Shown here: piece after piece, positions 130 to 29,137 of the stretch | Layout of the letters: each line of letters opens with the position of its first letter | Numbering within the stretch: position 1 is the stretch's first letter | Source of the DNA: Escherichia phage Tls | Reading direction: 5' to 3' (one strand) | Sequence record: AY308796.1 | DNA: 49,902 nt | Program-made: the position numbers and the translations under genes | Notes under the pieces: model-generated | Told to the model about the DNA's origin: nothing | Database searches by the model: none | Seen by the model: only the letters and a program-made list of their open reading frames with translations

Positions 130-450
130 TTCGTTCTCGACCGTTCACGAATCCATCCGGCGTAGTTCTCCGACGGTGTTTCGCGTTAGCCACACAAAAA
201 GAACAAAATTATACCCTATATAATAATAATTAAAACAATAGGTTAGTTATATATATTAATTTATATGTTCTTTTATGTATAGCGTGTTCCATAGGGTATG
301 TGGTAGGGTGTGTATGATTGATATTGCTGTCTGTATATTATTTAGCCAATTGGGATTGATTTTGGTATTTGGCTTCAAAAATGTATATATGTATATAAAC
401 CCGCGAAAAATCGTGAACACGTGAACAGCGATGGAACAAGAATTTATTTT
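130..450. repeat. AT-rich non-coding element, copy A (homologous to 28760-29020)
   Basis: Shares ordered blocks with copy B: gttcac..gaatccggcgta, acaaaaagaacaaaatta, GT-rich gtgg tract, gtatatatg, cgtgaaca(x2), atggaaca; no credible ORF or RBS. Confidence 0.6.
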
Positions 451-522
451 CAGGAAAATCATCGACTTGAAATTTAATTTTGTGTGAGCGTGGGTATGGA
501 ACGTTAGCACACAAAAAACTAC

Positions 523-551
523 TTGACGAGAACAAACGGCGGCGATAATAT
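523..551 (+). promoter_or_regulatory. sigma70-like promoter TTGACG-N17-TAATAT
   Basis: -35 TTGACG at 523-528, 17-nt spacer, -10 TAATAT at 546-551, about 40 nt upstream of first gene. Confidence 0.55.
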
Positions 552-588
552 GCCTCCACCAACTAACCAAACAGGAGGATAACCAATC

Positions 589-1038
589 ATGGCAACTACC
601 AAAGAGTTTTGCGACAGCTTGCGGTTGCTGGCTAAAAAGCTGGCAGACGGAGAGCTACAGGAATTCGTCATCACTGACGCAACCATTACCGATAACCTGG
701 ATGAAGATGACCAGAAGAAGATTAACGCTTCATACATCCGCACGATCATGAATCGTGTTCCAGAGGTGAAGGAGATCGGAACGGTTTCAATTACTCGCAC
801 TGATCCGGTTGAGGAAGCGCCAGGTTTTAAGGTGGCAATCAACCGCGAGGCAAAGCGACAGGTATTCACAAAAAATGATATTCCGGCACTGGAAAAGCGG
901 ATCGGTGAGCGAATCGCCAAACGACTGCTAAACACAATGCCAAATATCACGGATCTGGAAGGTGAACAACTCCAGGGCGCGGCAATCGGAATTAAGCGTT
1001 ATCAGGATCTGATTAAGTCATTTGCAACGGGGGAATAA
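589..1038 (+). CDS. hypothetical early protein (149 aa)
   Basis: ATG with SD aggagg 8 nt upstream; first gene after promoter. Confidence 0.6.
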   Translation: MATTKEFCDSLRLLAKKLADGELQEFVITDATITDNLDEDDQKKINASYIRTIMNRVPEVKEIGTVSITRTDPVEEAPGFKVAINREAKRQVFTKNDIPALEKRIGERIAKRLLNTMPNITDLEGEQLQGAAIGIKRYQDLIKSFATGE

Positions 1039-1041
1039 GCC

Positions 1042-1290
1042 ATGAAATACGAAACCAAAGAGAAGATCGCAAAGGTTATTGTTGATGAGTTTGGACGCGT
1101 CGAACTAACACAGGAACAATGGGAGGAAATCAAAGAGGCACACAGACACATGATTTCACCACGCGTGATTGTCAGATCTGGAGGCAGTGAATTTAAATAC
1201 GTGGCTGATTCTCCAGCGCTTAAAACGGCTGTTAACGTACTGCTTAATAGTGGCGAAGAATTCGAAGTTGTCAAGGAGCGCGTAGATTGA
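1042..1290 (+). CDS. hypothetical protein (82 aa)
   Basis: ATG 3 nt after previous stop; ORF-track ORF. Confidence 0.55.
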   Translation: MKYETKEKIAKVIVDEFGRVELTQEQWEEIKEAHRHMISPRVIVRSGGSEFKYVADSPALKTAVNVLLNSGEEFEVVKERVD

Positions 1291-1302
1291 AAGCATTCGC
1301 CT

Positions 1303-1500
1303 TTGTCGCCGCAATGTGGTGTGTTGTTATTGATAGTCCTGGCGTGGCGCTGGTTGTGTTGGGTCTTATTTTATTGGGGGTGTTTGATGAATAAGAAACT
1401 TTTAGATCATGCCGTGGTGTTCTTTATCGCTGCTGCTGGATTTTCGCTGTTGTCAATTGCTTTTTCAATCCTTGCTTTTGCCGTGTCAATGCTGAAATGA
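1303..1500 (+). CDS. small hydrophobic membrane protein; start uncertain (TTG 1303 or ATG 1387)
   Basis: ORF-track start is TTG; in-frame ATG at 1387 has SD ggggg; product is almost entirely hydrophobic. Confidence 0.4.
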   Translation: MSPQCGVLLLIVLAWRWLCWVLFYWGCLMNKKLLDHAVVFFIAAAGFSLLSIAFSILAFAVSMLK

Positions 1501-1520
1501 CGGATTACATCCTGATTGGT

Positions 1521-1566
1521 AAATAGCACTTTTTGTTAAAACTCAATTGGGGTGGTTTGACATAAT
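1521..1566 (+). promoter_or_regulatory. motif promoter: AAATAGCACTTTTTGTTAAAAC + 18 nt + TGaCATAAT
   Basis: 22-nt conserved motif 1521-1542; TGn-extended -10 CATAAT at 1561-1566. Confidence 0.55.
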
Positions 1567-1597
1567 TACCCCATTGAAACGAAATGAGGAAAATAAA

Positions 1598-1855
1598 ATG
1601 TTTGAACTGAAACGCGTAACTGTTGAGATCCTGAATGATGGCTCTTATGACGGCATGAAACACTTAACCTTCCCGATCCGCATTGAGAATTGCATTGATT
1701 ATGGGATTGAAGTTGGAATGGTTGACGTTCCGCTTGATGCACTTATCGCGGCTGGCTATGACAAAGAGAAAGGCCAATGTGCCGATATACCGGATAGCTA
1801 TGAAAGCGACACACATTTCCCGTTCACATATGGCGAATGCCGGATTGTTGATTGA
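1598..1855 (+). CDS. hypothetical protein (85 aa)
   Basis: In-frame ATG with SD gagga; ORF-track start 1547 is TTG lying inside the promoter. Confidence 0.55.
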   Translation: MFELKRVTVEILNDGSYDGMKHLTFPIRIENCIDYGIEVGMVDVPLDALIAAGYDKEKGQCADIPDSYESDTHFPFTYGECRIVD

Positions 1856-1864
1856 GGTTATAAA

Positions 1865-1945
1865 ATGAGCAGTTGGCACAATGAGCACGTAATGCAATTC
1901 TACCGACACAGAATAAAGAAAATGCTAAATAGCACGAATTGCTAA
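1865..1945 (+). CDS. possible micro-ORF (26 aa) ending ...NSTNC inside promoter motif
   Basis: ATG 1865 with SD gagg; stop TAA is the TTGCTAA of the motif; below ORF-track size cutoff. Confidence 0.25.
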   Translation: MSSWHNEHVMQFYRHRIKKMLNSTNC

Positions 1946-1972
1946 AACTAAATCAGGGGCATTTGTTATAGT
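1927..1972 (+). promoter_or_regulatory. motif promoter: AAATAGCACGAATTGCTAAAAC + 18 nt + TGtTATAGT
   Basis: Motif 1927-1948; -10 TATAGT 1967-1972. Confidence 0.55.
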
Positions 1973-2006
1973 GTCCCTAGTTTAGTTAAGCAAAGGAGAA
2001 TCAACA

Positions 2007-2573
2007 ATGTTAAGCATCGAAAAAATCAACTTCCCGATCACCTTTAAATTCTATCAGCCTGACATGCAAGTTACCTTCACCAGTAAAACGCGCGGAGAGT
2101 GGAAAGGTGGTGGAATAACAGGATTTAAACTTGAGTATTTCGTTAACAAGCACAACAACAAAAATCCAGATAATATCCCTGGCAAAGATGGGTATTACAT
2201 AATGGCGGCTTGTGGCAAAGAAGAAAAACGCGAGGATAACGATCTGTTAGACGCTTTGAAATATTTAAATATCAAGCCTGGCCAGGTCAATTTAAACGGT
2301 GCTGTATTCACTGCGTCAGTAGGTGCTAAAGATTACGATTACATTTGCAATGTTGAAAATATGCCAGTTGGCGCAACGCTGTTAGGTGTTCAGCGTGAAA
2401 ATGGCGAATGGGACGAGTTGAAATTTAAACCGCGCCGCATTGAAGTACACGACGATGTTATTTGCTTGCTTTCCGGTTATGCTGGTGGCTACAAGAGCGG
2501 TAATAATTACGGCGCTGAAATCAACATTAAGATCGGTACTAACGTAAAAATCAAAAACAGCACGAATTGCTAA
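2007..2573 (+). CDS. hypothetical protein (188 aa)
   Basis: ATG with SD aaaggag; stop codon TAA lies inside next motif copy. Confidence 0.6.
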   Translation: MLSIEKINFPITFKFYQPDMQVTFTSKTRGEWKGGGITGFKLEYFVNKHNNKNPDNIPGKDGYYIMAACGKEEKREDNDLLDALKYLNIKPGQVNLNGAVFTASVGAKDYDYICNVENMPVGATLLGVQRENGEWDELKFKPRRIEVHDDVICLLSGYAGGYKSGNNYGAEINIKIGTNVKIKNSTNC

Positions 2574-2600
2574 AACAGAATTTTGGGCTTGCTGTATAGT
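2555..2600 (+). promoter_or_regulatory. motif promoter (variant AAACAGCACGAATTGCTAAAAC) + 18 nt + TGTATAGT
   Basis: Motif 2555-2576 overlapping stop of upstream gene; -10 TATAGT 2595-2600. Confidence 0.5.
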
Positions 2601-2633
2601 AAGCTCATACCAAACAACGAAAGGGATCAAAAA

Positions 2634-2948
2634 ATGGAATTAGCACGTAACGCGGTTTATGGCTTACACCTCAAAGGCGGTAAAGGTTCAACATATGCGC
2701 ACCTGTTTCATGTTAACGAGCGCGGCCAGGTTGATATCGCAATGCATGTTGACCAACTGGTTAAAGGTAGTGAGTCCGACAAATTCAGACCGGATTTAAT
2801 TGAATATGATCACGCGTACAGCCACGACCACTGGCTATATGGTTATAAGTTTACAATGCTGGATAGCCATGTTATTGACACAAGCAAGTTAACAAAACGA
2901 GACTATAAGCGCATGGCTCGCAAAATCTTGAAGCAGAAAGCGCAATAG
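2634..2948 (+). CDS. hypothetical protein (104 aa)
   Basis: In-frame ATG with SD aaaggga; ORF-track start 2583 is TTG. Confidence 0.55.
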   Translation: MELARNAVYGLHLKGGKGSTYAHLFHVNERGQVDIAMHVDQLVKGSESDKFRPDLIEYDHAYSHDHWLYGYKFTMLDSHVIDTSKLTKRDYKRMARKILKQKAQ

Positions 2949-2988
2949 CACGAAATGTTAAGCGGTCATGTGTGCTGATTGGTACAAT
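2944..2988 (+). promoter_or_regulatory. degenerate motif promoter (AATAGCACGAAATGTTAAG) + TACAAT
   Basis: Partial motif overlapping stop of upstream gene; -10-like TACAAT 2983-2988. Confidence 0.4.
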
Positions 2989-3020
2989 GACCGCATCAAC
3001 CAACAAGAGAGGATAGAAAA

Positions 3021-3128
3021 ATGTCAAAAGAATCAATTAAGCAGTTTCTGAAATACGGCTCTATGATTGTGCTCGCTACCGTTGTGCTGGCTGGCATCGC
3101 GTATAGCATTATTGAGTTTGCGGGGTAA
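3021..3128 (+). CDS. small membrane protein (35 aa)
   Basis: ATG with SD gagagga; hydrophobic core IVLATVVLAGIAY; stop abuts next start. Confidence 0.4.
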   Translation: MSKESIKQFLKYGSMIVLATVVLAGIAYSIIEFAG

Positions 3129-3131
3129 TTG

Positions 3132-3695
3132 ATGTTTACGATCAACTTGTGGGGAAGGGATTATGTTAATCCCTATGTTGCGACAAAACAGCGTTTCGTT
3201 ATTTTCGACCTAGACGGCACATTGTCAAATGGTGAGCACCGCTTGCACCTGTTGCCAACAGTTGATTTGCATCTTACTGAAAGCTGGAGTGAGTTTAATC
3301 GCGCCGCAAAGGATGATTTACCATTCATGGATAACATAGCCGTTTGCAATGCCATGTTTGATGCCGGATACCTGGTTATCATCCTAACTGGTCGGAGTGA
3401 TGAAGTTGAGGCAGAAACGCGAGCATGGTTAGCTGAAAACGGCGTTTCTTTCGATTGGCTGATTATGCGCCGCGCGGAGGACAACCGGAAAGATACCGTG
3501 ATCAAAGAGGAAGTTTTACGGACTATCGGACTTGATCGCATTGTCGCATGTTGGGATGACTCACCAAACGTTATTTCACACCTGCGCGGCCTGGGCTTGA
3601 CTGTTTACCAGGTCATTGAATACGGCGAGCAGTTACACGATCACTTAAAGTCTCACGGCGTGGAGGAATTGAGCAATGACAGCAAAGTTAATTGA
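3132..3695 (+). CDS. HAD-family phosphatase resembling the 3'-phosphatase domain of T4 polynucleotide kinase
   Basis: HAD motif I FDLDGTL; downstream blocks ILTGR, RKDTVIKEE, WDDSPNV resemble Pnk phosphatase domain (from memory, not searched). Confidence 0.65.
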   Translation: MFTINLWGRDYVNPYVATKQRFVIFDLDGTLSNGEHRLHLLPTVDLHLTESWSEFNRAAKDDLPFMDNIAVCNAMFDAGYLVIILTGRSDEVEAETRAWLAENGVSFDWLIMRRAEDNRKDTVIKEEVLRTIGLDRIVACWDDSPNVISHLRGLGLTVYQVIEYGEQLHDHLKSHGVEELSNDSKVN

Positions 3696-3864
3696 AGATC
3701 GGCATGGTGATAATGTGCTGATTTACAAAAAAGGTGAATCAGTGTGGATTGATTGCAAACATTGGGATGATACAAATTTGCAGTTTCGCGGAATCTTTGA
3801 CAAGAAAGGCGCGTTGGAGTTAGCGGAGCACATCAAGCGGATTGCGGAAGAATTACCAGAATAG
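3676..3864 (+). CDS. hypothetical protein (62 aa)
   Basis: ATG overlapping previous gene end. Confidence 0.5.
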   Translation: MTAKLIEDRHGDNVLIYKKGESVWIDCKHWDDTNLQFRGIFDKKGALELAEHIKRIAEELPE

Positions 3865-3874
3865 AGGGTTTATT

Positions 3875-4060
3875 ATGTTGACTTTTATCTTGATCGCTAT
3901 CGTTTTAATTCTGTATGTTTGCGGCGCTTTCCTGATGCGAGCGCTACTAAAAGAGGCTGACGCTGATGATAAGGATAGTTGGAAGCCGATTGTTTTGTGG
4001 CCTGGCTATATCATCGTGCCGATTTACGAACTAATCCGCGATGGTGAGTTTAAGTGGTAA
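3875..4060 (+). CDS. small membrane protein (61 aa)
   Basis: In-frame ATG with SD agaggg; TM segment LTFILIAIVLILYVCGAFL. Confidence 0.5.
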   Translation: MLTFILIAIVLILYVCGAFLMRALLKEADADDKDSWKPIVLWPGYIIVPIYELIRDGEFKW

Positions 4061-4104
4061 ATAGCACTTTTTGCTAAAACTTGCTAAGGCACATTTGATA
4101 AAGT
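4059..4104 (+). promoter_or_regulatory. motif promoter: AAATAGCACTTTTTGCTAAAAC + 18 nt + TGaTAAAGT in hairpin loop
   Basis: Motif 4059-4080; perfect 8-bp inverted repeat aaggcaca/tgtgcctt (4086-4111) flanks -10 TAAAGT 4099-4104. Confidence 0.55.
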
Positions 4105-4137
4105 GTGCCTTGTCGAGACAAGCAAGGAGAATGACAC

Positions 4138-4392
4138 ATGAAACATTACAGGTGCGGCAGTCTTATTTATCGTGACGATGGGGTTAATATTTTTGTTGCA
4201 TATTATGACAAGATGGAATTTTTTGAATCCATTTACACAAGGCGCGTTTTTAATTCAATGGTTGATGCCGGATTCATGAAAGAGTGCGAGCCACCAAAAG
4301 CGAAGCCGTTTTATAAAAATGTTGATTTCTGGCATAACGCCGTATTGATCACAATTCTGTTAATTCTTTCTATGGTGTTTATTTTCTTATGA
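4138..4392 (+). CDS. hypothetical protein with C-terminal TM segment (84 aa)
   Basis: ATG with SD aaggaga; C-terminal hydrophobic tail. Confidence 0.55.
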   Translation: MKHYRCGSLIYRDDGVNIFVAYYDKMEFFESIYTRRVFNSMVDAGFMKECEPPKAKPFYKNVDFWHNAVLITILLILSMVFIFL

Positions 4393-4571
4393 TGCTTGAT
4401 AACCGTAAAGAGACTGAAAAAACGATCAGCTATCTGCGTGAGCTTGCCGATAGACTGGAAAACGGCGAAGTTGGATTAAATGATATTACTATTGAAGCGC
4501 GTAATATTTGTTGGAACGTTGAAGAAGAAACATTAACACTACAAACTGTTAAGGCGGTAAACAATGGCTAA
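4389..4571 (+). CDS. hypothetical protein (60 aa)
   Basis: ATGA start-stop overlap with upstream gene. Confidence 0.45.
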   Translation: MMLDNRKETEKTISYLRELADRLENGEVGLNDITIEARNICWNVEEETLTLQTVKAVNNG

Positions 4572-5139
4572 AATTATCATCCTAAATGCGCCTCCTGGTG
4601 CTGGTAAAGACACTATCGGCAAGATGATTTCTTTCTATTCGCCTGGTGAGCAATGCCGAATCATTAGCTTTAAAGAGCCAATGTTTGATATTGCATTGGC
4701 TATCCTGGGTAAAGAGAACTATCAGCGTTTCATGTTGGCTTATAATGACAGAGGGAAAAAAGAAAGGCCGCAAACATTCCTGATGGGTATGTCACCGCGT
4801 GAGTTCATGATCTGGATTAGCGAGGATGTAATCAAACCTAAATTCGGCAAGGATTATTTCGGCGTAAGGTTTAACCAGAAAGTAAAAGAGTGTGATGCTC
4901 CTGTTGTTTGCACTGATGGTGGTTTTCCAGATGAAATTATCGCTCTAATCAATGCTGGTAATGAGGTGAAGCTATGCCGCTTGCATCGCGACGGGTTCAC
5001 GTTTGCAGGTGATAGCCGCAACTACATTCGAATCAACCCCTATTACCATAAAAACGGATATAGCGAGCACGATTTTTATTTGACCGATAACAAGCCAATG
5101 GGAACCGTTAACACGATTATCAACATGTTCCTAAAATAG
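4564..5139 (+). CDS. P-loop kinase, dNMP-kinase-like
   Basis: Walker A NAPPGAGKDT near N-terminus, resembling phage deoxynucleotide monophosphate kinases; stop TAG inside next motif. Confidence 0.55.
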   Translation: MAKIIILNAPPGAGKDTIGKMISFYSPGEQCRIISFKEPMFDIALAILGKENYQRFMLAYNDRGKKERPQTFLMGMSPREFMIWISEDVIKPKFGKDYFGVRFNQKVKECDAPVVCTDGGFPDEIIALINAGNEVKLCRLHRDGFTFAGDSRNYIRINPYYHKNGYSEHDFYLTDNKPMGTVNTIINMFLK

Positions 5140-5179
5140 CACGAATTGCTAAAAATTACGCAAGGCCATTTGATATAGT
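5134..5179 (+). promoter_or_regulatory. motif promoter: AAATAGCACGAATTGCTAAAAA + 18 nt + TGaTATAGT in hairpin loop
   Basis: Motif 5134-5155; hairpin aaggcca/tggcctt; -10 TATAGT 5174-5179. Confidence 0.55.
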
Positions 5180-5219
5180 GGCCTTATTCAAGAGAAGCAA
5201 CCAATCAGAGGAATAAGCG

Positions 5220-5417: not shown

Positions 5418-5418
5418 A

Positions 5419-5957: not shown

Positions 5958-5968
5958 GGAGAATTAAC

Positions 5969-6481
5969 ATGATTGCTAAAAATAACCTTCACAACCTTTT
6001 AACTAGTGGTAATGATTATCAGGTACTGAATAGCACAAAAGACCGTTATTTTATAGAATGTGATAATGGTGATCGCATGTGGTTGCGTAAGGATTTTTTC
6101 GAAAGCGAACACCTAAGCAATGCAAAGCGGATCGCAGATGAAGCAAGCGCATTAGCAGAGCGTGAACGAATTCGCGATATAGTAGCGGAGCAGGTTAGAA
6201 ATTCTTGCTTGCCTGGTGGCGATATCTTCAAATCAATGCGCGGTGAAATGACGGTTGGAATTCAAGATCGCGTAATTGAAAAATCAGTTGATTATGTAAT
6301 TGAGAATGCGAAATTCAATGCGTTGATTGACTCAGAGCATAACGAATACGTCAAAGTATTAGAGCAACTGCGTGAAGTGCTGCGAGTGCCGGAAGGTGAA
6401 AATATTGTGACTCATGCAAAGGTTGTAAGAGCGTTGGCTGATGCTTTGCTTGACGTTTACCCAGGAATGAAGTGCAAATAG
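5969..6481 (+). CDS. hypothetical protein (170 aa)
   Basis: In-frame ATG with SD aaggag; stop TAG inside next motif. Confidence 0.55.
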   Translation: MIAKNNLHNLLTSGNDYQVLNSTKDRYFIECDNGDRMWLRKDFFESEHLSNAKRIADEASALAERERIRDIVAEQVRNSCLPGGDIFKSMRGEMTVGIQDRVIEKSVDYVIENAKFNALIDSEHNEYVKVLEQLREVLRVPEGENIVTHAKVVRALADALLDVYPGMKCK

Positions 6482-6521
6482 CACTTTTTGTTAAAACTTC
6501 CGCGAGGGCATTTGTTAAAGT
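6476..6521 (+). promoter_or_regulatory. motif promoter: AAATAGCACTTTTTGTTAAAAC + 18 nt + TGtTAAAGT
   Basis: Motif 6476-6497; hairpin gagggca/tgtcctc; -10 TAAAGT 6516-6521. Confidence 0.55.
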
Positions 6522-6555
6522 GTCCTCATTGAAGCGAAACACGGAGATTTAGAAA

Positions 6556-7536: not shown

Positions 7537-7537
7537 A

Positions 7538-7787: not shown

Positions 7788-7816
7788 TTGACGGCGTGTT
7801 GTCTGATTGGTAGATT
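7788..7816 (+). promoter_or_regulatory. sigma70-like promoter TTGACG-N17-TAGATT
   Basis: Read directly; followed by CGTGAACA box and a GC-rich ~130-nt leader before gene at 7948. Confidence 0.45.
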
Positions 7817-7947
7817 AAACGCCGTGAACATAAGAGACTCAATAGAGCAAAGCGCGGCGCGTTAGCCGTAAAGCCAAATCGGATGGGATTGCATTGCAAA
7901 TGACCGTCGCGGGAGCCGTAACCCGCAACCACTCAGGAGATTAATTT

Positions 7948-8791: not shown

Positions 8792-9316
8792 ATGGCTAAA
8801 AAAACAGAAGCGCCAGCGGCGGAAAGTCTAAACTTTAAAAAGTTATGGAATAAGCGATATTCCGATCTGGTAGGTAGTGAGATTGATAAACGCGCAACGC
8901 TAACGCCGGAACAAGTCATGAACCTGATTGTTCAGTATTTTGAGTGGGCGGAGCTAAACGCCATTAAAGCAGGTGAAACGGCATCATTTCAGGGTCGAGT
9001 GTATCAGGATACGATTCACAAGCCGCGTATTTTTACATGGGAAGGGTTAAAGCTGTTTTGCGGTTTTTCCGGCACAGCACTAGCAAAGTGGAAACTTAAA
9101 CCAGGCTATGATGTTGTTATTGAGTTTGCGGAATCGGTAATCAAAGAACAAAAATACCAGTTAGCTGCAAACGGAATGATTAACAGCACCATGATCGCAA
9201 AAGAGCTTGGCATTGATAAAGGCGACACGTTCAATATTAGCGCCAACGCAAAAGAGCAAGACAATACAGAAGAAGCGATGAAAAACGCAGTCGCAAGCGT
9301 CCTAAGCAAGATTTAA
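8792..9316 (+). CDS. terminase small subunit (putative)
   Basis: 174-aa gene immediately upstream of terminase large subunit; ATG with SD aggagg; ORF-track start is an extension into the terminator. Confidence 0.55.
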   Translation: MAKKTEAPAAESLNFKKLWNKRYSDLVGSEIDKRATLTPEQVMNLIVQYFEWAELNAIKAGETASFQGRVYQDTIHKPRIFTWEGLKLFCGFSGTALAKWKLKPGYDVVIEFAESVIKEQKYQLAANGMINSTMIAKELGIDKGDTFNISANAKEQDNTEEAMKNAVASVLSKI

Positions 9317-9327
9317 AGGTGAATGCT

Positions 9328-10899
9328 ATGTTGATTTGGGAAGATTTAACAAAACTTGAAAAGCTGGCTATTAAGGAATTAAGCACACACGATTTTGATA
9401 CTTTCGTTAAAATCTGGTTCCCGATCCAGCAGGGCGAAAAATGGATTCCTAACTGGCATCACCTTTATATTGCAAGGGCAATTGATGAAATTATTGAAGG
9501 TGTGCGCAAAGATACCATTTTTAACGTAACGCCAGGCTCAGGCAAAACCGAATTGCTTTCGATCCACTTTCCGCCTTATTCATATTTGAAATTGAACAAG
9601 GTGCGAAATCTGAATATTTCTTTTGCTGATACACTGGTTAAACGTAACAGCAAGCGTGTGCGAGATCTGGTTAACTCGCGAGAATGGCAAGAGCTTTACC
9701 CCGCAAAAACTGGTACAAGCAAGGATGATGAATTCCAGATCCTTAATGACGCTGGCAAAGTTCGCCTGGAAATGATTAGTAAATCAATGGGAGGTCAGAT
9801 TACTGGTAGCCGTGGCGGTTACATCACGCCTGGCGTTTATTCCGGTTGTGTGACGCTTGATGATCCAGAAAAGCCGGATGATATGTTTTCGAAGGTGAAG
9901 CGTGAGCGCGGTCAAATGATCGCAAAGAACACCATTCGATCACGTCGCGCACATTCAGAAACGCCGATTATCGTTATTCAGCAGCGTCTACACGCGCAGG
10001 ATATGACCTGGTTTCTGATGAATGGCGGAATGGGTATTGAATTTGATCAGATATCAATTCCGGCGATGGTTACAGAGGAATACGGGAAATCGCTTCCTGA
10101 TTGGTTACAGCCTCATTTTGAAAAAGATGTGCTTTCGTCTGAATACATCGTTATTGACGGCGTGAAGTATTATTCTTTTTGGCCTAGCAAGGAAAGCATT
10201 CATGATCTTAAAGCGCTACGCGATGCGGATTTGTACACGTTCCTTTCTCAGTATCAGCAAGAGCCAATTGCTCTTGGCGGTAACGCAATTAACGTTGGAT
10301 GGTTCCAGTATTACGGAACCGGAGAAAAATCAACGATGCCAAAACCGGATCGCTTTGATTATACGTTTATTACAGCAGATACCGCTCAGAAAGAAGGTGA
10401 GCTAAACGACTACAGCGTTTTATGTTATTGGGGCATGTTCAAAGGCCGTATATATTTTATTGACGGTGTGCGCGGAAAATGGGAAGCGCCAATGTTAGAA
10501 ACGCAGTTTAAAGCGTTTGTTAAACAGTGCTGGAACCGTAACAAAGAATGCGGAAACTTGCGTAAAATTTACGTGGAAGATAAAGCGAGCGGTACAGGTT
10601 TGATCCAGAATTGCCGCAAAGCATTTCCGATAGAAATTACGCCAGTGCAACGCGATAAAGACAAAGTAACGCGCTGCATGGACGCACAGCCAGTGATCAA
10701 GAATGGTTATGTTGTATTGCCTGAATCGCATCACATGCTTGCTGAATTTCTGGCAGAGGCGGCGGCATTCACTTATGATGATAGCCATCCTCATGATGAT
10801 ATTATGGATAACCTTTTTGATGCGGTTAATATTGAGCTTAACCTTGCTGATAATGCGGTTGATAGAATGAAGCGTTTAGCTGGATTAGCGAAGCGTTAA
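9328..10899 (+). CDS. terminase large subunit
   Basis: About 520 aa; Walker A TPGSGKTEL; acidic nuclease-like C-terminal region; position before portal; start ATG 9328 (or GTG 9319). Confidence 0.85.
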   Translation: MLIWEDLTKLEKLAIKELSTHDFDTFVKIWFPIQQGEKWIPNWHHLYIARAIDEIIEGVRKDTIFNVTPGSGKTELLSIHFPPYSYLKLNKVRNLNISFADTLVKRNSKRVRDLVNSREWQELYPAKTGTSKDDEFQILNDAGKVRLEMISKSMGGQITGSRGGYITPGVYSGCVTLDDPEKPDDMFSKVKRERGQMIAKNTIRSRRAHSETPIIVIQQRLHAQDMTWFLMNGGMGIEFDQISIPAMVTEEYGKSLPDWLQPHFEKDVLSSEYIVIDGVKYYSFWPSKESIHDLKALRDADLYTFLSQYQQEPIALGGNAINVGWFQYYGTGEKSTMPKPDRFDYTFITADTAQKEGELNDYSVLCYWGMFKGRIYFIDGVRGKWEAPMLETQFKAFVKQCWNRNKECGNLRKIYVEDKASGTGLIQNCRKAFPIEITPVQRDKDKVTRCMDAQPVIKNGYVVLPESHHMLAEFLAEAAAFTYDDSHPHDDIMDNLFDAVNIELNLADNAVDRMKRLAGLAKR

Positions 10900-22711: not shown

Positions 22712-22716
22712 ATCAA

Positions 22717-22741: not shown

Positions 22742-22778
22742 TGTGTCTATAATGGTGCTTTATTGGAGGGCATAGAAT

Positions 22779-24256: not shown

Positions 24257-24848
24257 TGTGATTAACGTAAAATTATCTGGCTCATTGGGTCGCCGCTTTG
24301 GTGTTTTCCATAAATATGCTGTTGATAGTTGGCCTGAATGCGTAAGGGCATTATCAAGCCAGGTTGAAGGATTCAAAGAATTTATGCAAAGTGAAATCGG
24401 ATCAAAGATGAAATTTGCAATTTTCGTTGATGGTAAAAATGTTGGCCTGAATAATGATAGCGAATGGCGTTGCGCTCGTGAGGTTAGAATCGTTCCAGTT
24501 CCAACCGGTTCAAAATCTGGAGGCTTATTTCAAGTTGTATTAGGAGCTGTAATTATGGTTGCTGCATTCTATACTGGTGGCGCTTCACTTGCTGCAATGG
24601 GGGCTTTTTCTTCATCAGCTTTTATGATGGGCGGTGCTATGGTTCTTGGCGGAGTAATGCAGATGATTAGCCCACAACAGGGAGGCATAAGAATGGAGAG
24701 TCAAAGCGCTGAAAATAAACCATCATATGCGTTTGGTGGTGCTGTTAATACTACGGCGGCAGGTTATCCGGTATGTTTACCATATGGTTATAGAACGGTT
24801 GGCGGCGCTGTATTCAGTGCTGGCTCATACGCAGAAGATAAACTTTAA
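24249..24848 (+). CDS. tail assembly protein, lambda gpI-like
   Basis: Position between K and J; Gly/Ala-rich hydrophobic C-terminal half. Confidence 0.6.
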   Translation: MNNVINVKLSGSLGRRFGVFHKYAVDSWPECVRALSSQVEGFKEFMQSEIGSKMKFAIFVDGKNVGLNNDSEWRCAREVRIVPVPTGSKSGGLFQVVLGAVIMVAAFYTGGASLAAMGAFSSSAFMMGGAMVLGGVMQMISPQQGGIRMESQSAENKPSYAFGGAVNTTAAGYPVCLPYGYRTVGGAVFSAGSYAEDKL

Positions 24849-24856
24849 TTATATAA

Positions 24857-24880
24857 ACCCGCCGTTGCGCGGGTTTTTTG
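24857..24880 (+). terminator. rho-independent terminator (aacccgccgttgcgcgggtttttt)
   Basis: Read directly; paralogue of 8722-8746. Confidence 0.7.
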
Positions 24881-24905
24881 TTACATGTACAATGGCAGCA
24901 CGTTT

Positions 24906-24927
24906 AAATAGCACAAAAGGTTAAAAG
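24906..24927 (+). promoter_or_regulatory. motif-like sequence AAATAGCACAAAAGGTTAAAAG overlapping the RBS of the J gene
   Basis: Matches the 22-nt motif in both half-sites but lies 3 nt from the start codon, so cannot be a promoter for J. Confidence 0.3.
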
Positions 24928-24929
24928 CT

Positions 24930-27900
24930 ATGATCAAAAATATGATAACTGGCAGTAAGGGCGGTTCTTCAAAGCCTCATACACCTGTTGAAATGGAAGA
25001 TAACCTAATTTCAATCAACAGGATCAGAATTCTTTTAGCCGTTTCTGATGGTGAAGTTGATCCAAACTTTTCATTGAAAGATTTATATTTTGATGACGTT
25101 CCGGTTATGAATCAGGATGGTTCACTAAACTTTCAGAATGTTAAGGCAGAATTCAGACCAGGGACGCAAACGCAGGATTATATTCAGGGCTTTACTGATA
25201 CAGCCAGCGAAGTTACTGTTGCTCGCGATCTGACAGCCGCAACGCCTTATATTATTTCTGTTACCAATAAAAACCTTTCTGCGATCCGTATTAAAATTTT
25301 AATGCCTCGCGGGGTTACTCAGGAAGATAACGGAGATCTAACAGGTGTTCGCGTTGAATATGCTGTTGATATGGCTGTTGATGGTGCTGAATATAAAGAG
25401 GTTTTGCATGATGTAATTGAAGGTAAAACAATGAGCGGTTACGACAGAAGCCGCAGAATTGATTTACCTGCTTTTAATGAGCGTGTTTTATTGCGCGTCC
25501 GTCGCCTGACAGATAGCACGTCAGCAAGGGTAACGGATCTGATTAAAATGCAAAGCTATGCGGAAGTTGTAGACGCTAAATTTCGTTACCCACTGACTGG
25601 TTTAGTCTACGTTGAATTTGATAGCGAATTATTCCCTAATGCGTTACCGAATATCAGCATTAAAAAGAAATGGAACATCATAAATGTTACGTCGAATTAC
25701 GATCCGATTAGCCGCACCTATTCAGGGGCATGGGATGGAACCTGGAAAAAAGCCTGGTCTAATAATCCGGCTTTTGTACTGTATGATTTAATTACCAATC
25801 AGCGTTACGGACTCGATCAAAGAGAGTTAGGCATCGCGCTTGATAAATGGAGCATTTACGAATGTGCGCAGTATTGCGATCAGATGGTTCCAGACGGTAA
25901 AGGCGGAACAGAGCCGCGATATCTTTGCGACGTTGTGATCCAGAGCCAAGTAGAAGCGTATCAGCTTGTGCGTGATATTTGTTCAATCTTCCGTGGCATG
26001 AGCTTTTGGAATGGTGAGAGCCTTTCAATCGTGATCGATAAGCCTCGCGATGCGTCATACATCTTTACTAATGACAACGTGGTTAACGGTGAATTCACTT
26101 ACACGTTTGCCAGCGAAAAAAGCATGTACACGCAATGCAACGTGACTTTCGACGACGAACAAAACATGTATCAACAGGATGTTGAGGGAGTTTTCGAAAC
26201 GGAGGCGGCGTTACGCTTTGGCTATAACAGCACGTCAATTACTGCGATTGGATGCACACGACGCAGCGAAGCCAACCGCCGTGGACGCTGGATTTTAAAA
26301 ACCAACGTCAAGAGCACAACGGTAAACTTTGCTACAGGTCTGGAAGGTATGATCCCAACCGTAGGAGATGTGATTGTTGTATCTGATAACTTTTGGTCAA
26401 GTGCTCTAACGCTGAATCTATCAGGTCGCTTGATGGAGGTTAGCGGGTTGCAGGTGTTCACGCCGTTTAAGGTAGACGCAAGAGCAGGTGATCGCATTCT
26501 GGTAAATAAGCCGGATGGTAAGCCAGTTGGTCGAACCATTGCGCGTGTGAGTGATGACGGTAAAACGCTAACGCTAAACACGACATTTGGTTTTGACGTT
26601 CAGCCGGATACCATTTTTGCAATTGAGCGAACCGATATTGCACAGCAACGATATGTTGTAACCGGAATCACTAAGGGTGACGGTGATGAAGAATTTACCT
26701 ACAACATAACGGCTGTTGAATACGATCCGAACAAATACGATGAAATTGATTATGGCGTAAACATTGATGACCGTCCGACTTCAATCGTGCAGCCTGACAT
26801 TTTGCCAGCACCGCAAAACGTCAAGATCGAATCTTATTCGCGAGTTGTCCAAGGCGCGAGCGTGGAAACAATGCATGTTTCATGGGATAAGGTTGAATAT
26901 GCAAGCCTTTATGAAATGCAGTGGAGAAAAGACAATGGCAACTGGAACAACACGCCGCGCACAGCCAACAAGGAAACGGAAGTTGAAGGAATTTATGCTG
27001 GTAACTATCACGTAAGGGTTAGATCTGTTGCAGCGAATGGTTCAGCGTCTGGATGGTCTGCAATCGTAAGTGCAGGATTAACCGGAAAAGTTGGAGAGCC
27101 GGAAAAGCCAATTAACCTTACAGCGTCTGACAATGAAGTTTTCGGAATTCGCGTAAAATGGGGTATGCCAGAAGGAAGCGGAGACACGGCCTATATAGAG
27201 TTGCATCAAGCGCCAAACGGTTCTGATGGTCATCCTATTGTTGATGAAGCAACGCTCTTAACGCTGATACCGTTCCCGCAATATGAGTATTGGCATTCAA
27301 TACTGCCAGCGGGTCATGTTGTCTGGTACAAGGCAAGGGCAGTTGACAAAATCGGTAACGTTTCTGATTGGACTGATTTTGTGCGCGGCATGGCTTCCGA
27401 CGATACGAGCATTATCACGGATCATATTAAGGTCGATATTGAAAATTCTGATGGCTATAAGTGGTTGCAGGAAAACGCAATAAAGACCAATGATAAGATC
27501 CACAGCACAGCGGAATCAGTGATTGAAAACGCATTAGCTAATGATAAAGATGTTCGACGTATGCGAGTTGAAAACGGAAAGCGTAAAGCGGAGTTCTTGC
27601 AATCGCTGAAACTCATTGCAGACGAAACAGAAGCCAGGGTAACACAGGTCACTCAAATGAGTGCGCAATTTGACGAGAAATTAACGGCTCAAAATAGCGA
27701 GTTGAGAGAGGTAATTGCTAACAGCACTGAAACCATTAGCCAAAGGATTAATCAGCTTACAGCTACGTTTGAGAGTGAAATTGATGGGGTTAAGCAGGAT
27801 ATCAAAGCACAGATAACTGATGTTAACCAGGCAATCACTAATGAAGCGGAAGCGCGAGCGTCAGCGGATAGGGCGTTATCAACTCAAATTGGAGATACCC

Positions 27901-28706
27901 AATCAGCAGTGAATCAGAAACTTGATTCTTGGGTTAATGCCGATAGCGTTGGTGCGATGTACGGCGTTAAGTTGGGGATCAGGTATAACGGGCAGGAATA
28001 TAGCGCAGGTATGGCGCTTTCTCTTGTCGCTGATGGTGGCGGAGTTAAATCACAATTCCTGTTTGATGCAGGACGATTCGCGATCATCAACAATGCTCAA
28101 AGCGGAGCCTTTACATTGCCGTTTGTTGTTGAAAATAATCAGGTGTTTATCAATAGTTTGCTTGTTAAAAATGGTTCTATCGGTAATGCACAGATTGCTA
28201 ACTTCATCAACTCTAACAACTGGCAGAGCGGGGTTGCAGGATGGGCTATTAACAAAGATGGTTACGCAGAATTTAACCAGATAACGGTAAGGGGTACTGT
28301 TTACGCAAACGCCGGTTCATTCACTGGTAACGTTTACGCTACTGATGGTTGGTTTAGGGGTACTGTTTACGCTGAAAAAATTGAGGGTGACGTTGCAAAG
28401 GCTGTTGTCCTTCCGTTTAACGGATCGGTTCACATTCCGGCGGTTAACTACAACAGACATCTTGTGATCCCTTATGTTGGTATTCACGGGTACACATATT
28501 CAGGTGGTACATGGGGCAGAGGTACTGTTTGGGTTGATTCAACATATGGCGGTCGCCTTGCTAACGTTCAGGCAACTGCAATGCATGGCGGATCAAGTGG
28601 TTATGTTCTGTTGCCAGCAGGTAACGCAACCACGCTTTCATATGGTGGAGATCTAAACCACGCAAACGCAGTACCGATCTTAACAGTTCTGCTATTCAAA
28701 GCATAA
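24930..28706 (+). CDS. central tail fibre / host specificity protein, lambda gpJ-like
   Basis: 1258 aa; N-terminus GSKGGSSKPHTPVEMEDNL resembles gpJ; FN3-like segment; position after gpI. Confidence 0.85.
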   Translation: MIKNMITGSKGGSSKPHTPVEMEDNLISINRIRILLAVSDGEVDPNFSLKDLYFDDVPVMNQDGSLNFQNVKAEFRPGTQTQDYIQGFTDTASEVTVARDLTAATPYIISVTNKNLSAIRIKILMPRGVTQEDNGDLTGVRVEYAVDMAVDGAEYKEVLHDVIEGKTMSGYDRSRRIDLPAFNERVLLRVRRLTDSTSARVTDLIKMQSYAEVVDAKFRYPLTGLVYVEFDSELFPNALPNISIKKKWNIINVTSNYDPISRTYSGAWDGTWKKAWSNNPAFVLYDLITNQRYGLDQRELGIALDKWSIYECAQYCDQMVPDGKGGTEPRYLCDVVIQSQVEAYQLVRDICSIFRGMSFWNGESLSIVIDKPRDASYIFTNDNVVNGEFTYTFASEKSMYTQCNVTFDDEQNMYQQDVEGVFETEAALRFGYNSTSITAIGCTRRSEANRRGRWILKTNVKSTTVNFATGLEGMIPTVGDVIVVSDNFWSSALTLNLSGRLMEVSGLQVFTPFKVDARAGDRILVNKPDGKPVGRTIARVSDDGKTLTLNTTFGFDVQPDTIFAIERTDIAQQRYVVTGITKGDGDEEFTYNITAVEYDPNKYDEIDYGVNIDDRPTSIVQPDILPAPQNVKIESYSRVVQGASVETMHVSWDKVEYASLYEMQWRKDNGNWNNTPRTANKETEVEGIYAGNYHVRVRSVAANGSASGWSAIVSAGLTGKVGEPEKPINLTASDNEVFGIRVKWGMPEGSGDTAYIELHQAPNGSDGHPIVDEATLLTLIPFPQYEYWHSILPAGHVVWYKARAVDKIGNVSDWTDFVRGMASDDTSIITDHIKVDIENSDGYKWLQENAIKTNDKIHSTAESVIENALANDKDVRRMRVENGKRKAEFLQSLKLIADETEARVTQVTQMSAQFDEKLTAQNSELREVIANSTETISQRINQLTATFESEIDGVKQDIKAQITDVNQAITNEAEARASADRALSTQIGDTQSAVNQKLDSWVNADSVGAMYGVKLGIRYNGQEYSAGMALSLVADGGGVKSQFLFDAGRFAIINNAQSGAFTLPFVVENNQVFINSLLVKNGSIGNAQIANFINSNNWQSGVAGWAINKDGYAEFNQITVRGTVYANAGSFTGNVYATDGWFRGTVYAEKIEGDVAKAVVLPFNGSVHIPAVNYNRHLVIPYVGIHGYTYSGGTWGRGTVWVDSTYGGRLANVQATAMHGGSSGYVLLPAGNATTLSYGGDLNHANAVPILTVLLFKA

Positions 28707-28719
28707 AAGGAGGTAAATC

Positions 28720-28760
28720 AATGCCCTGGCTTAACGGTCGGGGCATTTTGTTTTCTTTTG
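28720..28760 (+). terminator. hairpin plus T-rich tract after J
   Basis: Stem aatgccc/gggcatt with 14-nt loop, then TTTGTTTTCTTTTG. Confidence 0.5.
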
Positions 28761-29020
28761 TTCCACGATGTTCACAACCGAATCCGGCGTAAAATTGAAA
28801 ACGTCTTGATAACAAAAAGAACAAATTAAATATCTATATAATACATACACTTAGAGTTAATTATTATTATATATATCTATTTGTATCCTTATTGTTTCCA
28901 TTGTTCTATATGGTTTGTGGTGGTTGTGTGTTTTGTATTGGTTGATGGTTATATATCACATGGTATGTATTTATATATGGTATGCAGCGTAAATGCGTGA
29001 ACAATGGAACACAAAAACAA
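28760..29020. repeat. AT-rich non-coding element, copy B (homologous to 130-450)
   Basis: Shares the same ordered sequence blocks as copy A. Confidence 0.6.
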
Positions 29021-29109
29021 CAATTAGTAAAATCATAAACTTACGATGTGATTTTGTTTTCAATGCTAGTTGTAAACGTATTCAAAACAAAAAGAATACT
29101 TAAATGGTA

Positions 29110-29137
29110 TTGACTACATGAAACAAAGACATATAAT
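29110..29137 (+). promoter_or_regulatory. near-consensus sigma70 promoter TTGACT-N16-TATAAT
   Basis: -35 TTGACT 29110-29115; -10 TATAAT 29132-29137; about 30 nt upstream of exonuclease gene. Confidence 0.65.

Follow-up and report, generated by a model that had tools for sequence, protein, structure and literature searches.

The window analyzed here, 49,902 nucleotides, is the complete genome of phage TLS (AY308796.1), and its coordinates agree with the published tables. Regions A and B of this genome are homologous, noncoding modules of ~400 bp built from short boxes, GC clamps, an AT-rich core, and a GT-rich tract (Table 1).

Table 1. Features of modules A and B and candidate trans factors in the TLS genome
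Feature	Position	Strand	Evidence or remark
Element A, whole module	114-518	+	Match to B-type profile; alignment with B
A left-arm boxes GTTCTC (133-138), GTTCAC (143-148), TGTTC orientation	133-148	+	Sequence; aligns with B left arm
A left GC clamp CCGGCGTA	157-164	+	Block CCGCA/CCGGCG conserved in A- and B-type elements
A box ACAAAAAGAACAAA (194-207), then conserved TATAAT (219-224)	194-224	+	14-mer has no exact copy outside A and B
A AT-rich core, candidate DNA unwinding element	208-283	.	Duplex stability
A middle boxes TGTTC (266-270), TGTTCCAT (285-292)	266-292	+	
A GT-rich tract, sequence variable, composition conserved	293-345	+	Skew over 38 elements
A right GC clamp CCCGCGAAAAAT; right-arm boxes CGTGAACA (412, 420), ATGGAACA (431)	400-438	+	
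Promoter P01, TTGACG-N17-TAATAT, 9/12	523-551	+	Drives gp01 at 589
Terminator T50 of tail-fiber gene, directly left of B	28723-28754	+	
Element B, whole module	28745-29105	+	93-97% identity across ~45 phage records; profile match
B left-arm boxes TGTTCC (28759-28764), TGTTCAC (28769-28775)	28759-28775	+	Complementary to right arm
B left GC clamp CCGGCGTAAAAT	28784-28795	+	
B box ACAAAAAGAACAAA (28812-28825), conserved TATAAT (28837-28842)	28812-28842	+	
B AT-rich core, candidate DNA unwinding element	28823-28892	.	Duplex stability
B middle boxes TGTTTCC, TGTTC	28893-28906	+	
B GT-rich tract	28910-28950	+	Base composition
B right GC clamp GCAGCGTAAAT; right-arm boxes CGTGAACA (28996), ATGGAACA (29004), AAAAACA	28984-29019	+	
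IHF-like site AATCATAAACTTA (WATCAANNNNTTR with one mismatch)	29031-29043	+	
Promoter-proximal A-rich box AAAACAAAAAGAATAC, second AACA-N5-AACA copy	29084-29099	+	Conserved in B-type elements
Promoter P51, TTGACT-N16-TATAAT, 11/12	29110-29137	+	Drives exoVIII/Erf/SSB
Primase, homologous to N-terminal primase domain of P4 alpha	34239-35165	-	Zn_Ribbon_Prim; BLASTP
Candidate trans factor gp57, Cro-fold HTH protein	35224-35832	-	Structure matches
DUF3987 helicase as candidate trans factor; AAA+ fold resembling MCM, winged helix at the C-terminus (residues 449-520)	43502-45082	-	Pfam, model, Foldseek

Homology and promoter context of the two modules

The local alignment of A with B scores 63 (z = 12.9), whereas 500 dinucleotide shuffles give 23.3 +/- 3.1 and at most 43; this bears out the homology claimed in an earlier note. 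B is the best partner of A genome-wide. A profile HMM derived from 16 B-type elements of other phages matched A at 114-518 in an nhmmer search (E = 8e-32, HMM positions 37-390). It found no forward-strand copy in the window beyond A and B, its sole other match being weak, on the reverse strand, and inside B itself. Every ordered block named in the note occurs in both regions, including gttcac..ccggcgta (143-164 and 28770-28791), acaaaaagaacaaa (194-207 and 28812-28825, with no other exact copies in the genome), cgtgaaca (412 and 420 in A, 28996 in B), and atggaaca (431 and 29004). The limits given in the note, about 130-450 and 28760-29020, underestimate the size of the elements (~114-518 and 28745-29105). 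In A, the right-arm boxes, with two CGTGAACA copies in tandem, are inverted relative to the left arm. Neither plasmids nor E. coli genomes yielded a blastn match to A or B. A scan of viral contigs with ACAAAAAGAACAAA was dropped, having returned unrelated contigs because the complexity of this pattern is too low.

Each region is followed, as had been proposed, by an early sigma70 promoter, A by P01 and B by P51. Both are already published as such and have -35 and -10 hexamers with a spacer of 16 to 18 bp, but the description "near-consensus" suits P51 (11/12) and not P01 (only 9/12). P51 is conserved in 16 phages, with TTGAC invariant, and in T1. The modules each end, in constant orientation, at one of the only three sigma70 promoters of the genome, whereas the third early promoter, P57, has no A/B-like module. 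A GAACA-like box in the P01 and P51 spacers was dropped, since it is not conserved in other phages.

Duplex stability, boxes, and coordinated change across lineages

Among 60-bp windows of the TLS genome, duplex stability is lowest at 216-275 in A, at -0.942 kcal/mol per step (genome-wide mean, -1.347; SD, 0.079), and second lowest at 28823-28882 in B, which also contains the least stable 100-bp window (28810-28909). In each of TLS, T1, Rtp, and Henu8, the cores of A and B take the first two ranks of instability among both 60- and 100-bp windows, ~5 SD from the genome mean and with the third-ranked window well behind; such AT-rich DNA beside repeated boxes is what the unwinding element of an iteron-type origin would be. 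Most B-type elements retain the TATAAT block at the left core edge, some carry variants of it, and the block is also present in T1, Rtp A, L150, L151, and L153; in TLS it has no recognizable -35 or TGn. Across 38 elements the GT tract has a mean GC skew of +0.40 and a mean TA skew of +0.43, and in B the 94-nt segment spanning the middle boxes and the tract (HMM columns 189-283) contains G24 C6 A16 T48.

If the internal TATAAT drove expression of a small RNA or of a small hydrophobic peptide, this would fit the conservation of the perfect hexamer and the open frames of 30 to 50 hydrophobic codons that span the GT tract in many elements. We nevertheless hold such a product to be very improbable. 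Among 16 sequences RNAalifold detected not one conserved pair, folding of the single sequences gave z-scores of -1.2 and -0.8, Rfam at gathering thresholds gave no match, a tRNA search gave no RNA signal in the elements, and neither element contains a terminator, which leaves the small-RNA locus suggested in the note without signal. The hydrophobic frames lack a coding signature, in agreement with its view that neither region has a credible ORF: variable sites are distributed 8/10/4 by codon position with no third-position bias, one relative carries a frameshifting 1-nt indel, no Shine-Dalgarno was seen upstream, frames and lengths are inconsistent between lineages, and the A-poor composition alone removes stop codons.

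Comparison with related phage genomes, also proposed in the note, located the pair in T1, Rtp, and Henu8; it therefore occupies the same two places in 4/4 genomes examined, which represent three Drexlerviridae subfamilies. The cores are flanked by short (5-8 bp) inverted boxes whose word depends on the lineage, namely GTGAACA/GGAACA in TLS, TGTAACA in T1, and CCGCGG in Rtp. All six genome copies of TGTAACA in T1 and all three of CCGCGG in Rtp lie within A/B, as do four of the eight GTGAACA copies in TLS, which is only a moderate enrichment. Five of six copies of GATTAACA in T1 are in A, and the T1 words largely differ between A (GATTAACA) and B (GTGTAACA). Clusters of repeated short sites, enriched in or exclusive to A/B, are likewise a hallmark of iteron-type origins. 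Across 16 phages, 86.5% of cells show reverse complementarity between the boxes of the left and right arms, compared with 44-55% for slid partners. Arm covariation scores 0.160 versus 0.104 +/- 0.017 in shuffles (reached by 0/500), a difference that shared ancestry could also explain.

The lineage dependence of the words bears on two further proposals. An array of host-factor sites is not supported because the words differ though T1, TLS, and Rtp all infect E. coli; of the roles listed in the note, this one and the small-RNA locus lack support, and an origin and a phage-regulator array remain as the two best readings. A box was indeed found near 7788-7830 (CGTGAACA at 7823), but it is one isolated copy that lies outside any A/B-like element, with no profile match and no counterpart of the T1 words. 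Since TGTAACA occurs in T1 only in A and B, there is no support for a third site, and we rejected it.

Sequence comparison indicates concerted evolution of the two modules within a genome. Paralogues within one genome are more alike than orthologues across subfamilies: the A-B alignment scores 66 in T1, versus 37 and 37 for the TLS orthologues, and 141 in Rtp. The order of the blocks is the same in all three subfamilies, although the words of the boxes change together; in TLS-like phages, the box, TATAAT, and core blocks are invariant despite variable flanks. All of this, together with shuffles that preserve dinucleotides and never come near the observed score, speaks against a relic duplication or compositional drift of an AT-rich spacer whose function is limited to carrying a promoter. 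AT-rich intergenic DNA is easily aligned, and the number of promoter-like matches in the A/B regions does not exceed that in shuffles, but we give this explanation hardly any credence.

Candidate binding proteins and possible nonreplicative roles

The DUF3987 helicase (a Pfam match) yielded a model with a pLDDT of 89 and a C-terminus of topology H-S-H-H-S-S; Foldseek returned MCM matches (E 1.5e-5 to 7e-4) and weaker Orc1/Cdc6 matches (E 1.2e-3 to 4e-2). The winged helix is among its least conserved parts (column identity, 0.43-0.57). The fold of gp57 matches Xfaso1 and N15 Cro (TM 0.67-0.71), and its recognition helix varies by lineage. Helix and box type gave no clear correlation, because TLS-like and L140-like phages share the GTGAACA box despite different recognition helices. 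Palindromic 21-nt direct repeats, TAGCA-N5-TGCTA, are identical in T1 and TLS though the gp57 helix differs, and would be a more natural target of a Cro dimer than the GAACA boxes. The link between gp57 and the boxes that the note proposed is tentative, and the helicase with its variable winged helix would be an equally good candidate box binder. A sliding identity comparison of TLS and T1 replication proteins revealed no sharp specificity domain; somewhat lower identity was seen at the two ends of the helicase and at the N-terminus of TerS, the latter being the most divergent DNA-binding region compared (17-30% identity).

A and B could act purely in transcription, as operator/enhancer arrays like lambda OL/OR with no replication role, where a regulator such as gp57, together with IHF and A-tract/UP-like DNA, would boost and later shut off P01 and P51. 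The ending of each module at a sigma70 promoter, the Cro fold and lineage-variable helix of gp57, the A-rich AACA-N5-AACA box just upstream of the -35, and the IHF-like site ~75 bp upstream of P51 are consistent with this, and concerted evolution is compatible with a shared regulator. Most boxes, however, are 100-380 bp away from the promoters on the upstream side, none overlaps the -35 or -10, the promoter-spacer box is not conserved, P57 does without a module, and the TAGCA-N5-TGCTA repeats are better Cro-dimer targets. Left unexplained are the cores as the two least stable duplexes in four genomes, the conserved internal TATAAT, and the constrained composition of the GT tract. Operators alone are, in our estimate, rather unlikely, yet they are the main rival to origins. 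That the modules always stand directly before a sigma70 promoter, in one orientation, is accounted for equally well by transcriptional control alone and by an origin.

The divergence of the TerS N-terminus would also fit a role in packaging, in which the boxes are TerS sites beside the pac cut (compare lambda cosB/cosN and SPP1 pacL/pacR) and B is a noncut or secondary copy. A lies within ~100-500 bp of mapped pac, its left end ~100 bp to the right of where pac was published; from the HindIII (5876) and EcoRV (2733) sites and the fragments of 6 kb and 2.7 kb in the literature, pac comes out at ~1 +/- 150. The T1 and Rtp records likewise begin just left of their A elements. B, in contrast, lies mid-genome yet has every feature of A, keeps its place upstream of exoVIII in all lineages examined, and has no reported end fragment. 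A pac at B predicts a sharp 4.5-kb HindIII fragment, whereas only a sharp 6-kb band and diffuse 5- and 4-kb bands were reported, and the pac region has separate GATTKG repeats at 1-45. We consider packaging improbable.

Putative origins in early-promoter control regions and their closest relatives

Most likely, A and B are candidate T1-family replication origins or early-control regions. We tentatively prefer, at slightly less than an even chance, to see them as two copies of one cis-acting module where a protein-DNA complex would assemble, i.e., putative iterons plus an unwinding element forming origins embedded in early-promoter control regions. For such origins we infer four steps. First, a phage-encoded sequence-specific protein would bind the short boxes (GTGAACA/GGAACA in TLS), inverted on either side of the core; the variable C-terminal winged helix of the MCM-like helicase would be the best binder, with Cro-fold gp57 as the alternative. 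Second, the core, the least stable duplex of the genome, would open, perhaps aided by negative supercoiling behind the outward-firing P01 or P51, by leftward divergent transcription at A (and at B in many relatives), and at B by a possible IHF-type bend. Third, the helicase and the P4-alpha-like primase would load and replication would start. Fourth, the TATAAT at the left core edge followed by the GT-rich nontemplate tract may add an R-loop primer in the manner of T4 oriF/oriG. The most specific version, in which dual putative origins are read and opened by the MCM-like helicase through its winged helix, primed by an R-loop from the internal promoter and GT tract, and kept alike by gene conversion or helicase coevolution, is a doubtful one, which if true would give a bacterial virus an Orc1/MCM-style initiator-helicase at dual origins inside early-promoter control regions.

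The position of the IHF-like site is kept in 24 of 26 distinct B-type elements, nine of them exact, and in one of 10 A-type elements (TLS only), the motif being frequent elsewhere in these AT-rich elements; its absence from most A-type elements is a point against origins. The elements contain no clustered GATC sites and, by eye, one DnaA-box-like site with one mismatch (TTAGCCACA at 186-194).

For T1, which belongs to the classical set of seven T phages, no origin or early-transcription logic is known. No origin was found in TLS (PMC11447400) or in phage SU57 (PMC7718038), and the 2024 TLS re-annotation reported no origin-like repeats anywhere in the genome. The literature that we searched for T1-family origins, transcriptomes, and P4 iterons, not counting the genome papers of T1 (Virology 2004) and Rtp (J Bacteriol 2006), neither describes the A/B pair nor contains Drexlerviridae transcription-start or replication data. 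The present analysis supplies two precise ~400-bp candidate loci per genome, definable box mutations, and two candidate binders. Should the modules be origins, a phage helicase of the MCM type would gain a defined target on DNA, and a simple model would be at hand in bacteria for how winged-helix AAA+ helicases recognize origins. Should they be operators, they would constitute the early on/off switch of a phage family that is relevant both for contaminating laboratories and fermentations and for its candidacy in therapy.

P4 ori and crr resemble A/B in being two separated cis elements with a common short repeat in tandem and inverted copies, in P4 the binding site of the alpha primase-helicase, and the P4 repeat GGTGAACAG (NC_001609) contains the TLS heptamer GTGAACA. 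Against the P4 type 1 repeat TGTTCACC, however, the four GTGAACA copies in TLS A/B are preceded by C, not G, and T1 and Rtp have other words. The primase of TLS and the primase domain of P4 alpha are homologous (BLASTP to alpha residues 30-261, E = 5e-14), this being the only domain in common, and both helicases end in a DNA-binding-type domain. Unlike the P4 alpha primase-helicase, TLS has separate primase and helicase genes, and its helicase is DUF3987/MCM-like, whereas P4 alpha is D5-type with a Pox_D5 origin-binding domain. Tblastn in TLS and T1 detected no homologue of that domain, and the shared GTGAACA may therefore be coincidence. The TLS modules also differ from P4 in their large AT core, GT tract, and terminal sigma70 promoter, and in a spacing of 21-29 kb versus ~4.7 kb.

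In SaPIs, iteron specificity pairs with a helicase. PICI/SaPI origins have two short-iteron sets, different between elements, flanking an AT-rich putative melting site (PMC6092414). They are like A/B in the short repeats around an AT-rich segment and the element-specific words, but have one origin per island, adjoining rep, and no sequence similarity to A/B. T4 oriF/oriG and the T7 primary origin consist of a promoter followed by an AT-rich unwinding element and use R-loop priming. As in TLS, a -10-type element sits directly upstream of the most easily melted DNA, and more than one origin per phage genome would match a putative pair in TLS; unlike in TLS, there are no flanking inverted box arrays, and the TLS TATAAT stands without a recognizable -35/TGn. 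The SV40/polyomavirus core origin has inverted box pairs beside an AT tract, recognized by an initiator-helicase, inside the early-promoter control region, so that one element serves replication and transcription. It differs from TLS in its SF3 rather than MCM-like AAA+ helicase, unrelated proteins, eukaryotic host, and single origin. Lambda OL/PL and OR/PR are, like A and B, two homologous noncoding regions at early promoters in a genome encoding a Cro-fold protein, but their operators are 17-bp palindromes overlapping the promoters, whereas the TLS boxes are 5-8 bp and lie mostly far upstream, around a large AT core.

Paired elements at the early promoters

The window is the whole TLS genome: its length (49,902 bp) and all published coordinates agree with the 2024 re-annotation of TLS (PMC11447400), a phage classified in Drexlerviridae, Tempevirinae, Tlsvirus. 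Its non-coding elements A and B (see the table) are homologous. All of the blocks named in an earlier note were found in both, in identical order, and the pairwise alignment by which the note had suggested checking them (120-520 vs 28740-29110) scored 63, against 23.3 +/- 3.1 (maximum 43) in 500 dinucleotide-preserving shuffles (z = 12.9). The best match to A genome-wide is B, the 14-mer ACAAAAAGAACAAA has exactly two genome copies, one per element, and a profile HMM of 16 B-type elements from other phages recovered A at 114-518 (E = 8e-32). The same profile found no further forward-strand copy in the window, its only other match being weak, on the reverse strand and within B; the reverse complement of B aligned with A at a score of 50, which gave an early hint of dyad symmetry inside the elements. 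The box noted near the promoter at 7788-7830 gave no support to a third site: the CGTGAACA there (7823) stands alone, with no A/B-like element around it. The description of both terminal promoters as near-consensus suits P51 (11/12) and not P01 (9/12 only).

Element A falls within a divergent region of ~0.9 kb between leftward early genes (ending at 49565) and gp01 (589), with pac directly to its left and direct repeat DR18 on the left side of the region. B has the terminator of the J-like tail-fibre gene on one side and the exoVIII/Erf/SSB operon on the other; a reverse-oriented direct repeat lies directly left of B in many relatives, which puts B, like A, between transcription units that diverge. 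The re-annotation assigns position 1 to pac, lists 18 direct repeats and only three intergenic sigma70-like promoters (P01, P51, P57), reports origin-type repeats to be absent "anywhere else in the genome", and does not mention A and B (PMC11447400). P01, P51 and the terminator are thus already published, and the literature searched, which lay outside the T1 and Rtp genome papers, held no mention of the paired modules, their conservation in the family, their lineage-specific boxes or their extreme instability.

Coordinates of features in the TLS genome (AY308796.1)
Feature	Coordinates	Strand	Remark
Element A	114-518		Non-coding, ends at P01
Element B	28745-29105		Homologue of A, ends at P51
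P01	523..549		Promoter (PMC11447400)
P51	29110..29137		Promoter (PMC11447400); extended early consensus
T50	28723..28754		Terminator (PMC11447400)
DR18	49764-49784		Direct repeat
pac repeats	1-60, 49880-49902		Short GATTKG/TTGAT repeats
Tandem repeats at pac	18-45		Tandem Repeats Finder, periods 5 and 10
gp57	35224-35832	-	YdaS/P22_Cro-type HTH model matches
gp56	34239-35165	-	Primase
Annotated DNA helicase	43502-45082	-	526 aa, DUF3987 protein
21-nt direct repeat, examples	1521-1585, 1927-1991, 4059-4123, 5134-5198, 6476-6540, 38298-38362		
21-nt direct repeat, examples	45812-45832, 48177-48197	-	
Extended early-promoter site	35881-35909	-	
Inverted repeat arms	40294-40447, 47806-47959		154 nt, 79% complementary
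HNH endonuclease gene	47608-48120		Holds one inverted repeat arm
33-nt in-frame repeat (family D4)	33457-33652		Four copies
Gene holding the 33-nt repeat	32060-34084	-	Peptidase_S74 domain

Of 98 phage records with a match to B, about 45 show 93-97% identity; A is more variable, with ~77% identity to U136B, Stevie and Sazh. Loci of relatives collected through the anchors exoVIII and gp01 (44 B-side, 8 A-side) yielded A- and B-type elements whose alignment to the profile shows one common architecture: two TGTTC-type boxes and a CCGC-type GC clamp; the box AACAAAAAGAACAAA, TATAAT and an AT-rich core; two further TGTTC boxes; a tract of ~95-130 nt, variable in sequence and constrained to a GT-rich composition; TATATAT and another GC clamp; GAACA-type boxes, two or three in number and oriented opposite to the TGTTC side; an IHF-like site in B-types; and an A-rich AACA-N5-AACA box before the promoter. 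Averaged over 38 elements, skew in the GT tract is +0.40 for GC and +0.43 for TA. The module pair is present in all four genomes examined, namely, TLS, T1 (Tunavirinae), Rtp (Braunvirinae) and Henu8 (Hanrivervirus), and at the same two map positions. blastn of A and B against plasmid and E. coli genome collections gave no match, and the modules appear undetectable beyond the T1-like phage family. In a 53-kb relative (L168 2214-2815), an insertion of ~210 bp interrupts the GT-rich spacer of a B-type element between profile positions 248 and 267. Records of 47-50 kb labelled Campylobacter or Streptococcus phage (MG065663-MG065675, MG065636, OR786094) also match the TLS elements, a Streptococcus-labelled one at 94% identity to B, which suggests T1-like coliphage contaminants or mislabelled hosts.

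The elements had also been put forward as small-RNA loci. We rejected structured RNA: there were no Rfam matches to A or B at gathering thresholds, folding was no better than in shuffles (z of -1.2 and -0.8), and RNAalifold on 16 sequences found no conserved pair. The earlier view that neither region has a credible ORF was borne out. Hydrophobic ORFs do cross the GT tract (39 codons in B, 49 in A), where an A-poor composition by itself eliminates stop codons. A gene there was rejected on these grounds: no Shine-Dalgarno sequence was seen upstream by inspection, the variable sites in TLS-like phages number 8/10/4 at codon positions 1/2/3, a deletion shifts the frame in one relative, and frames and lengths are inconsistent beyond TLS-like phages.

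Unstable cores and lineage-specific boxes

Nearest-neighbour free energies place the A and B cores as the two least stable duplex segments genome-wide, with both 60- and 100-bp windows and in all four genomes; they are also the two least stable at 200 bp in TLS and T1, for which that window was computed. At ~5 sd from the genome mean, the cores leave a clear gap to the window ranked third, which is more stable.

The boxes around these cores differ between lineages. TLS has GTGAACA/GGAACA (four of the eight genome copies of GTGAACA are in A/B), T1 has TGTAACA (6/6 copies in A/B, p = 6e-11), with five of the six copies of GATTAACA in A, three tandem 9-mers among them, and Rtp has the palindrome CCGCGG (3/3 in A/B), to which GTTAC-type boxes, as judged by eye, may be added in both elements. 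By sequence inspection, the boxes of one further relative (L151) are GTAATC/GATTAC. Since T1, TLS and Rtp share E. coli as host and yet differ in their box words, the suggested array for a host factor is not the explanation; the natural inference would be recognition by a phage-encoded protein of diverging specificity.

Across 13 positions in 16 B-type elements, left-arm boxes are the reverse complement of the right arm in 86.5% of cells (44-55% in a slid-partner control), and four positions change on both sides. The arm covariation score (0.160 vs 0.104 +/- 0.017 shuffled, reached in 0/500) is supportive only, because the shuffle control leaves shared ancestry in. In an 8 x 8 similarity matrix, paralogues within one genome are often closer than orthologues across subfamilies: A and B score 141 in Rtp (z above 30), 93 in Henu8 and 66 in T1, where comparison with the TLS orthologues gives 37 and 37. 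Within a genome, the two copies are thus kept similar, either through gene conversion or through selection exerted by a shared binding factor.

Candidate roles and trans-acting proteins

Inverted, lineage-specific box arrays surround the DNA that melts most readily in the genome, the core has GC clamps on either side, B carries an IHF-like site, a strong promoter fires outward from alongside, and the two copies evolve in concert; the phage also encodes a helicase with a variable winged helix and a P4-type primase. On these grounds we tentatively read A and B as replication origins embedded in early-promoter control regions. The main rival, a purely transcriptional role as operators or enhancers, seems somewhat less likely, and the two roles are not mutually exclusive. 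Origins that combine iterons with an unwinding element are known, as are operator arrays; as judged by sequence, A and B appear unrelated to known examples and distinctive in their pairing, GT-skewed spacer and terminal early promoter.

T4 and T7 origins consist of a promoter plus an unwinding element, and the TLS succession of conserved TATAAT, core and G-rich non-template tract recalls them. The P4 genome, inspected directly, has two separate cis elements, ori (9310-9413) and crr (4291-4590), both bearing tandem as well as inverted copies of the type 1 repeat (GGTGAACAG/CTGTTCACC); this repeat contains GTGAACA, a heptamer also found in the TLS box. However, other Drexlerviridae use other box words, and neither TLS nor T1 has a sequence homologue of the P4 alpha origin-binding domain (Pfam Pox_D5), which argues for functional analogy rather than membership of the P4 system; at the sequence level the resemblance is possibly coincidence.

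For the proposed origins, the primase gp56 is homologous to the P4 alpha primase domain (E = 5e-14), and a high-confidence prediction makes the helicase an MCM-like AAA+ protein whose C-terminus forms a winged helix. Its model (pLDDT 89, pTM 0.87) shows helix-strand-helix-helix-strand-strand topology at residues 449-520 and matches MCM subunits (Foldseek E 1.5e-5 to 7e-4) and, more weakly, archaeal Orc1/Cdc6 on origin DNA (E 1.2e-3, probability 0.82; 4e-2, probability 0.41), at low TM-scores (0.32-0.37), which is the expected outcome when multi-domain proteins are aligned. Few parts of the protein are less conserved than the winged helix (column identity 0.43-0.57 vs 0.66-0.74 in the ATPase core).

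The HTH protein gp57 is a weak candidate for binding the boxes. Residues 43-100 adopt an all-alpha Cro fold (AlphaFold model, pLDDT 79.5) neighbouring Xfaso1 Cro and N15 Cro (TM 0.67-0.71; Foldseek E weak, 0.015-0.15), and the recognition helix varies between lineages. The link is weakened by the published 21-nt direct repeat, whose near-perfect palindrome (TAGCA-N5-TGCTA) would be a more natural target for a Cro dimer than the boxes. The protein also has a disordered, basic N-terminal arm (highly conserved STGEIDKRTINGNNGxRRGKD), a small region with Cys and a long helix at the C-terminus (159-197), the last present in TLS-like phages and missing from T1.

A packaging role is possible for A only and would leave B unexplained. 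TLS has two HindIII sites (5876 and 33334) and its first EcoRV site at 2733; the reported 6-kb pac-HindIII and 2.7-kb EcoRV fragments (PMC11447400) therefore place the cut at about 1 +/- 150, directly left of A, in a region with its own GATTKG repeats. A pac at B would yield a sharp 4.5-kb HindIII fragment, whereas the reported bands are a sharp one of 6 kb and diffuse ones of 5 and 4 kb. The pac repeats are kept in CF1 DK-2017 (L171 1180-1200), have similar counterparts at the ends of the T1 genome, and may be what the small terminase recognises. The TLS genome is strongly depleted of HindIII sites (2 vs 21.6 +/- 5.1 expected), and EcoRV sites are in excess (22 vs 10.0 +/- 3.2, a count reached in no shuffle).

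Direct repeats and other features

The published direct repeat aaATAGCACnnnTTGnTAAAA has 19 copies in the window, 11 of them followed by a -10-like hexamer (CATAAT, TATAGT, TAAAGT or TATAAT), with exactly 38 nt from the A of ATAGCAC to the hexamer start; a TGn extended -10 at +34/+35 is present in six copies. The 22 nt between TTGYTA and the -10 are too long for a sigma70 -35, so the repeat looks like a fixed-distance upstream site. It may lie at roughly -51 to -31 in promoters of a phage-specific class that is probably activator-dependent, and dimers of the Cro type, gp57 for instance, would fit its palindromic core. Early sigma70 promoters across Drexlerviridae have the extended consensus TTGACTAAAyGC..AATgGCTAyAAT in common, with homologues at loci from other phage records (L133-L165, L150-L153, L163); TLS P57 (ttgactaaatgccatttgcggcatatcat) resembles it.

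Since one arm lies within the HNH gene, the long inverted repeat probably reflects paralogous gene segments. The gene holding the 33-nt repeat probably encodes a side tail fibre; its counterpart in T1 carries a tail-fibre annotation.
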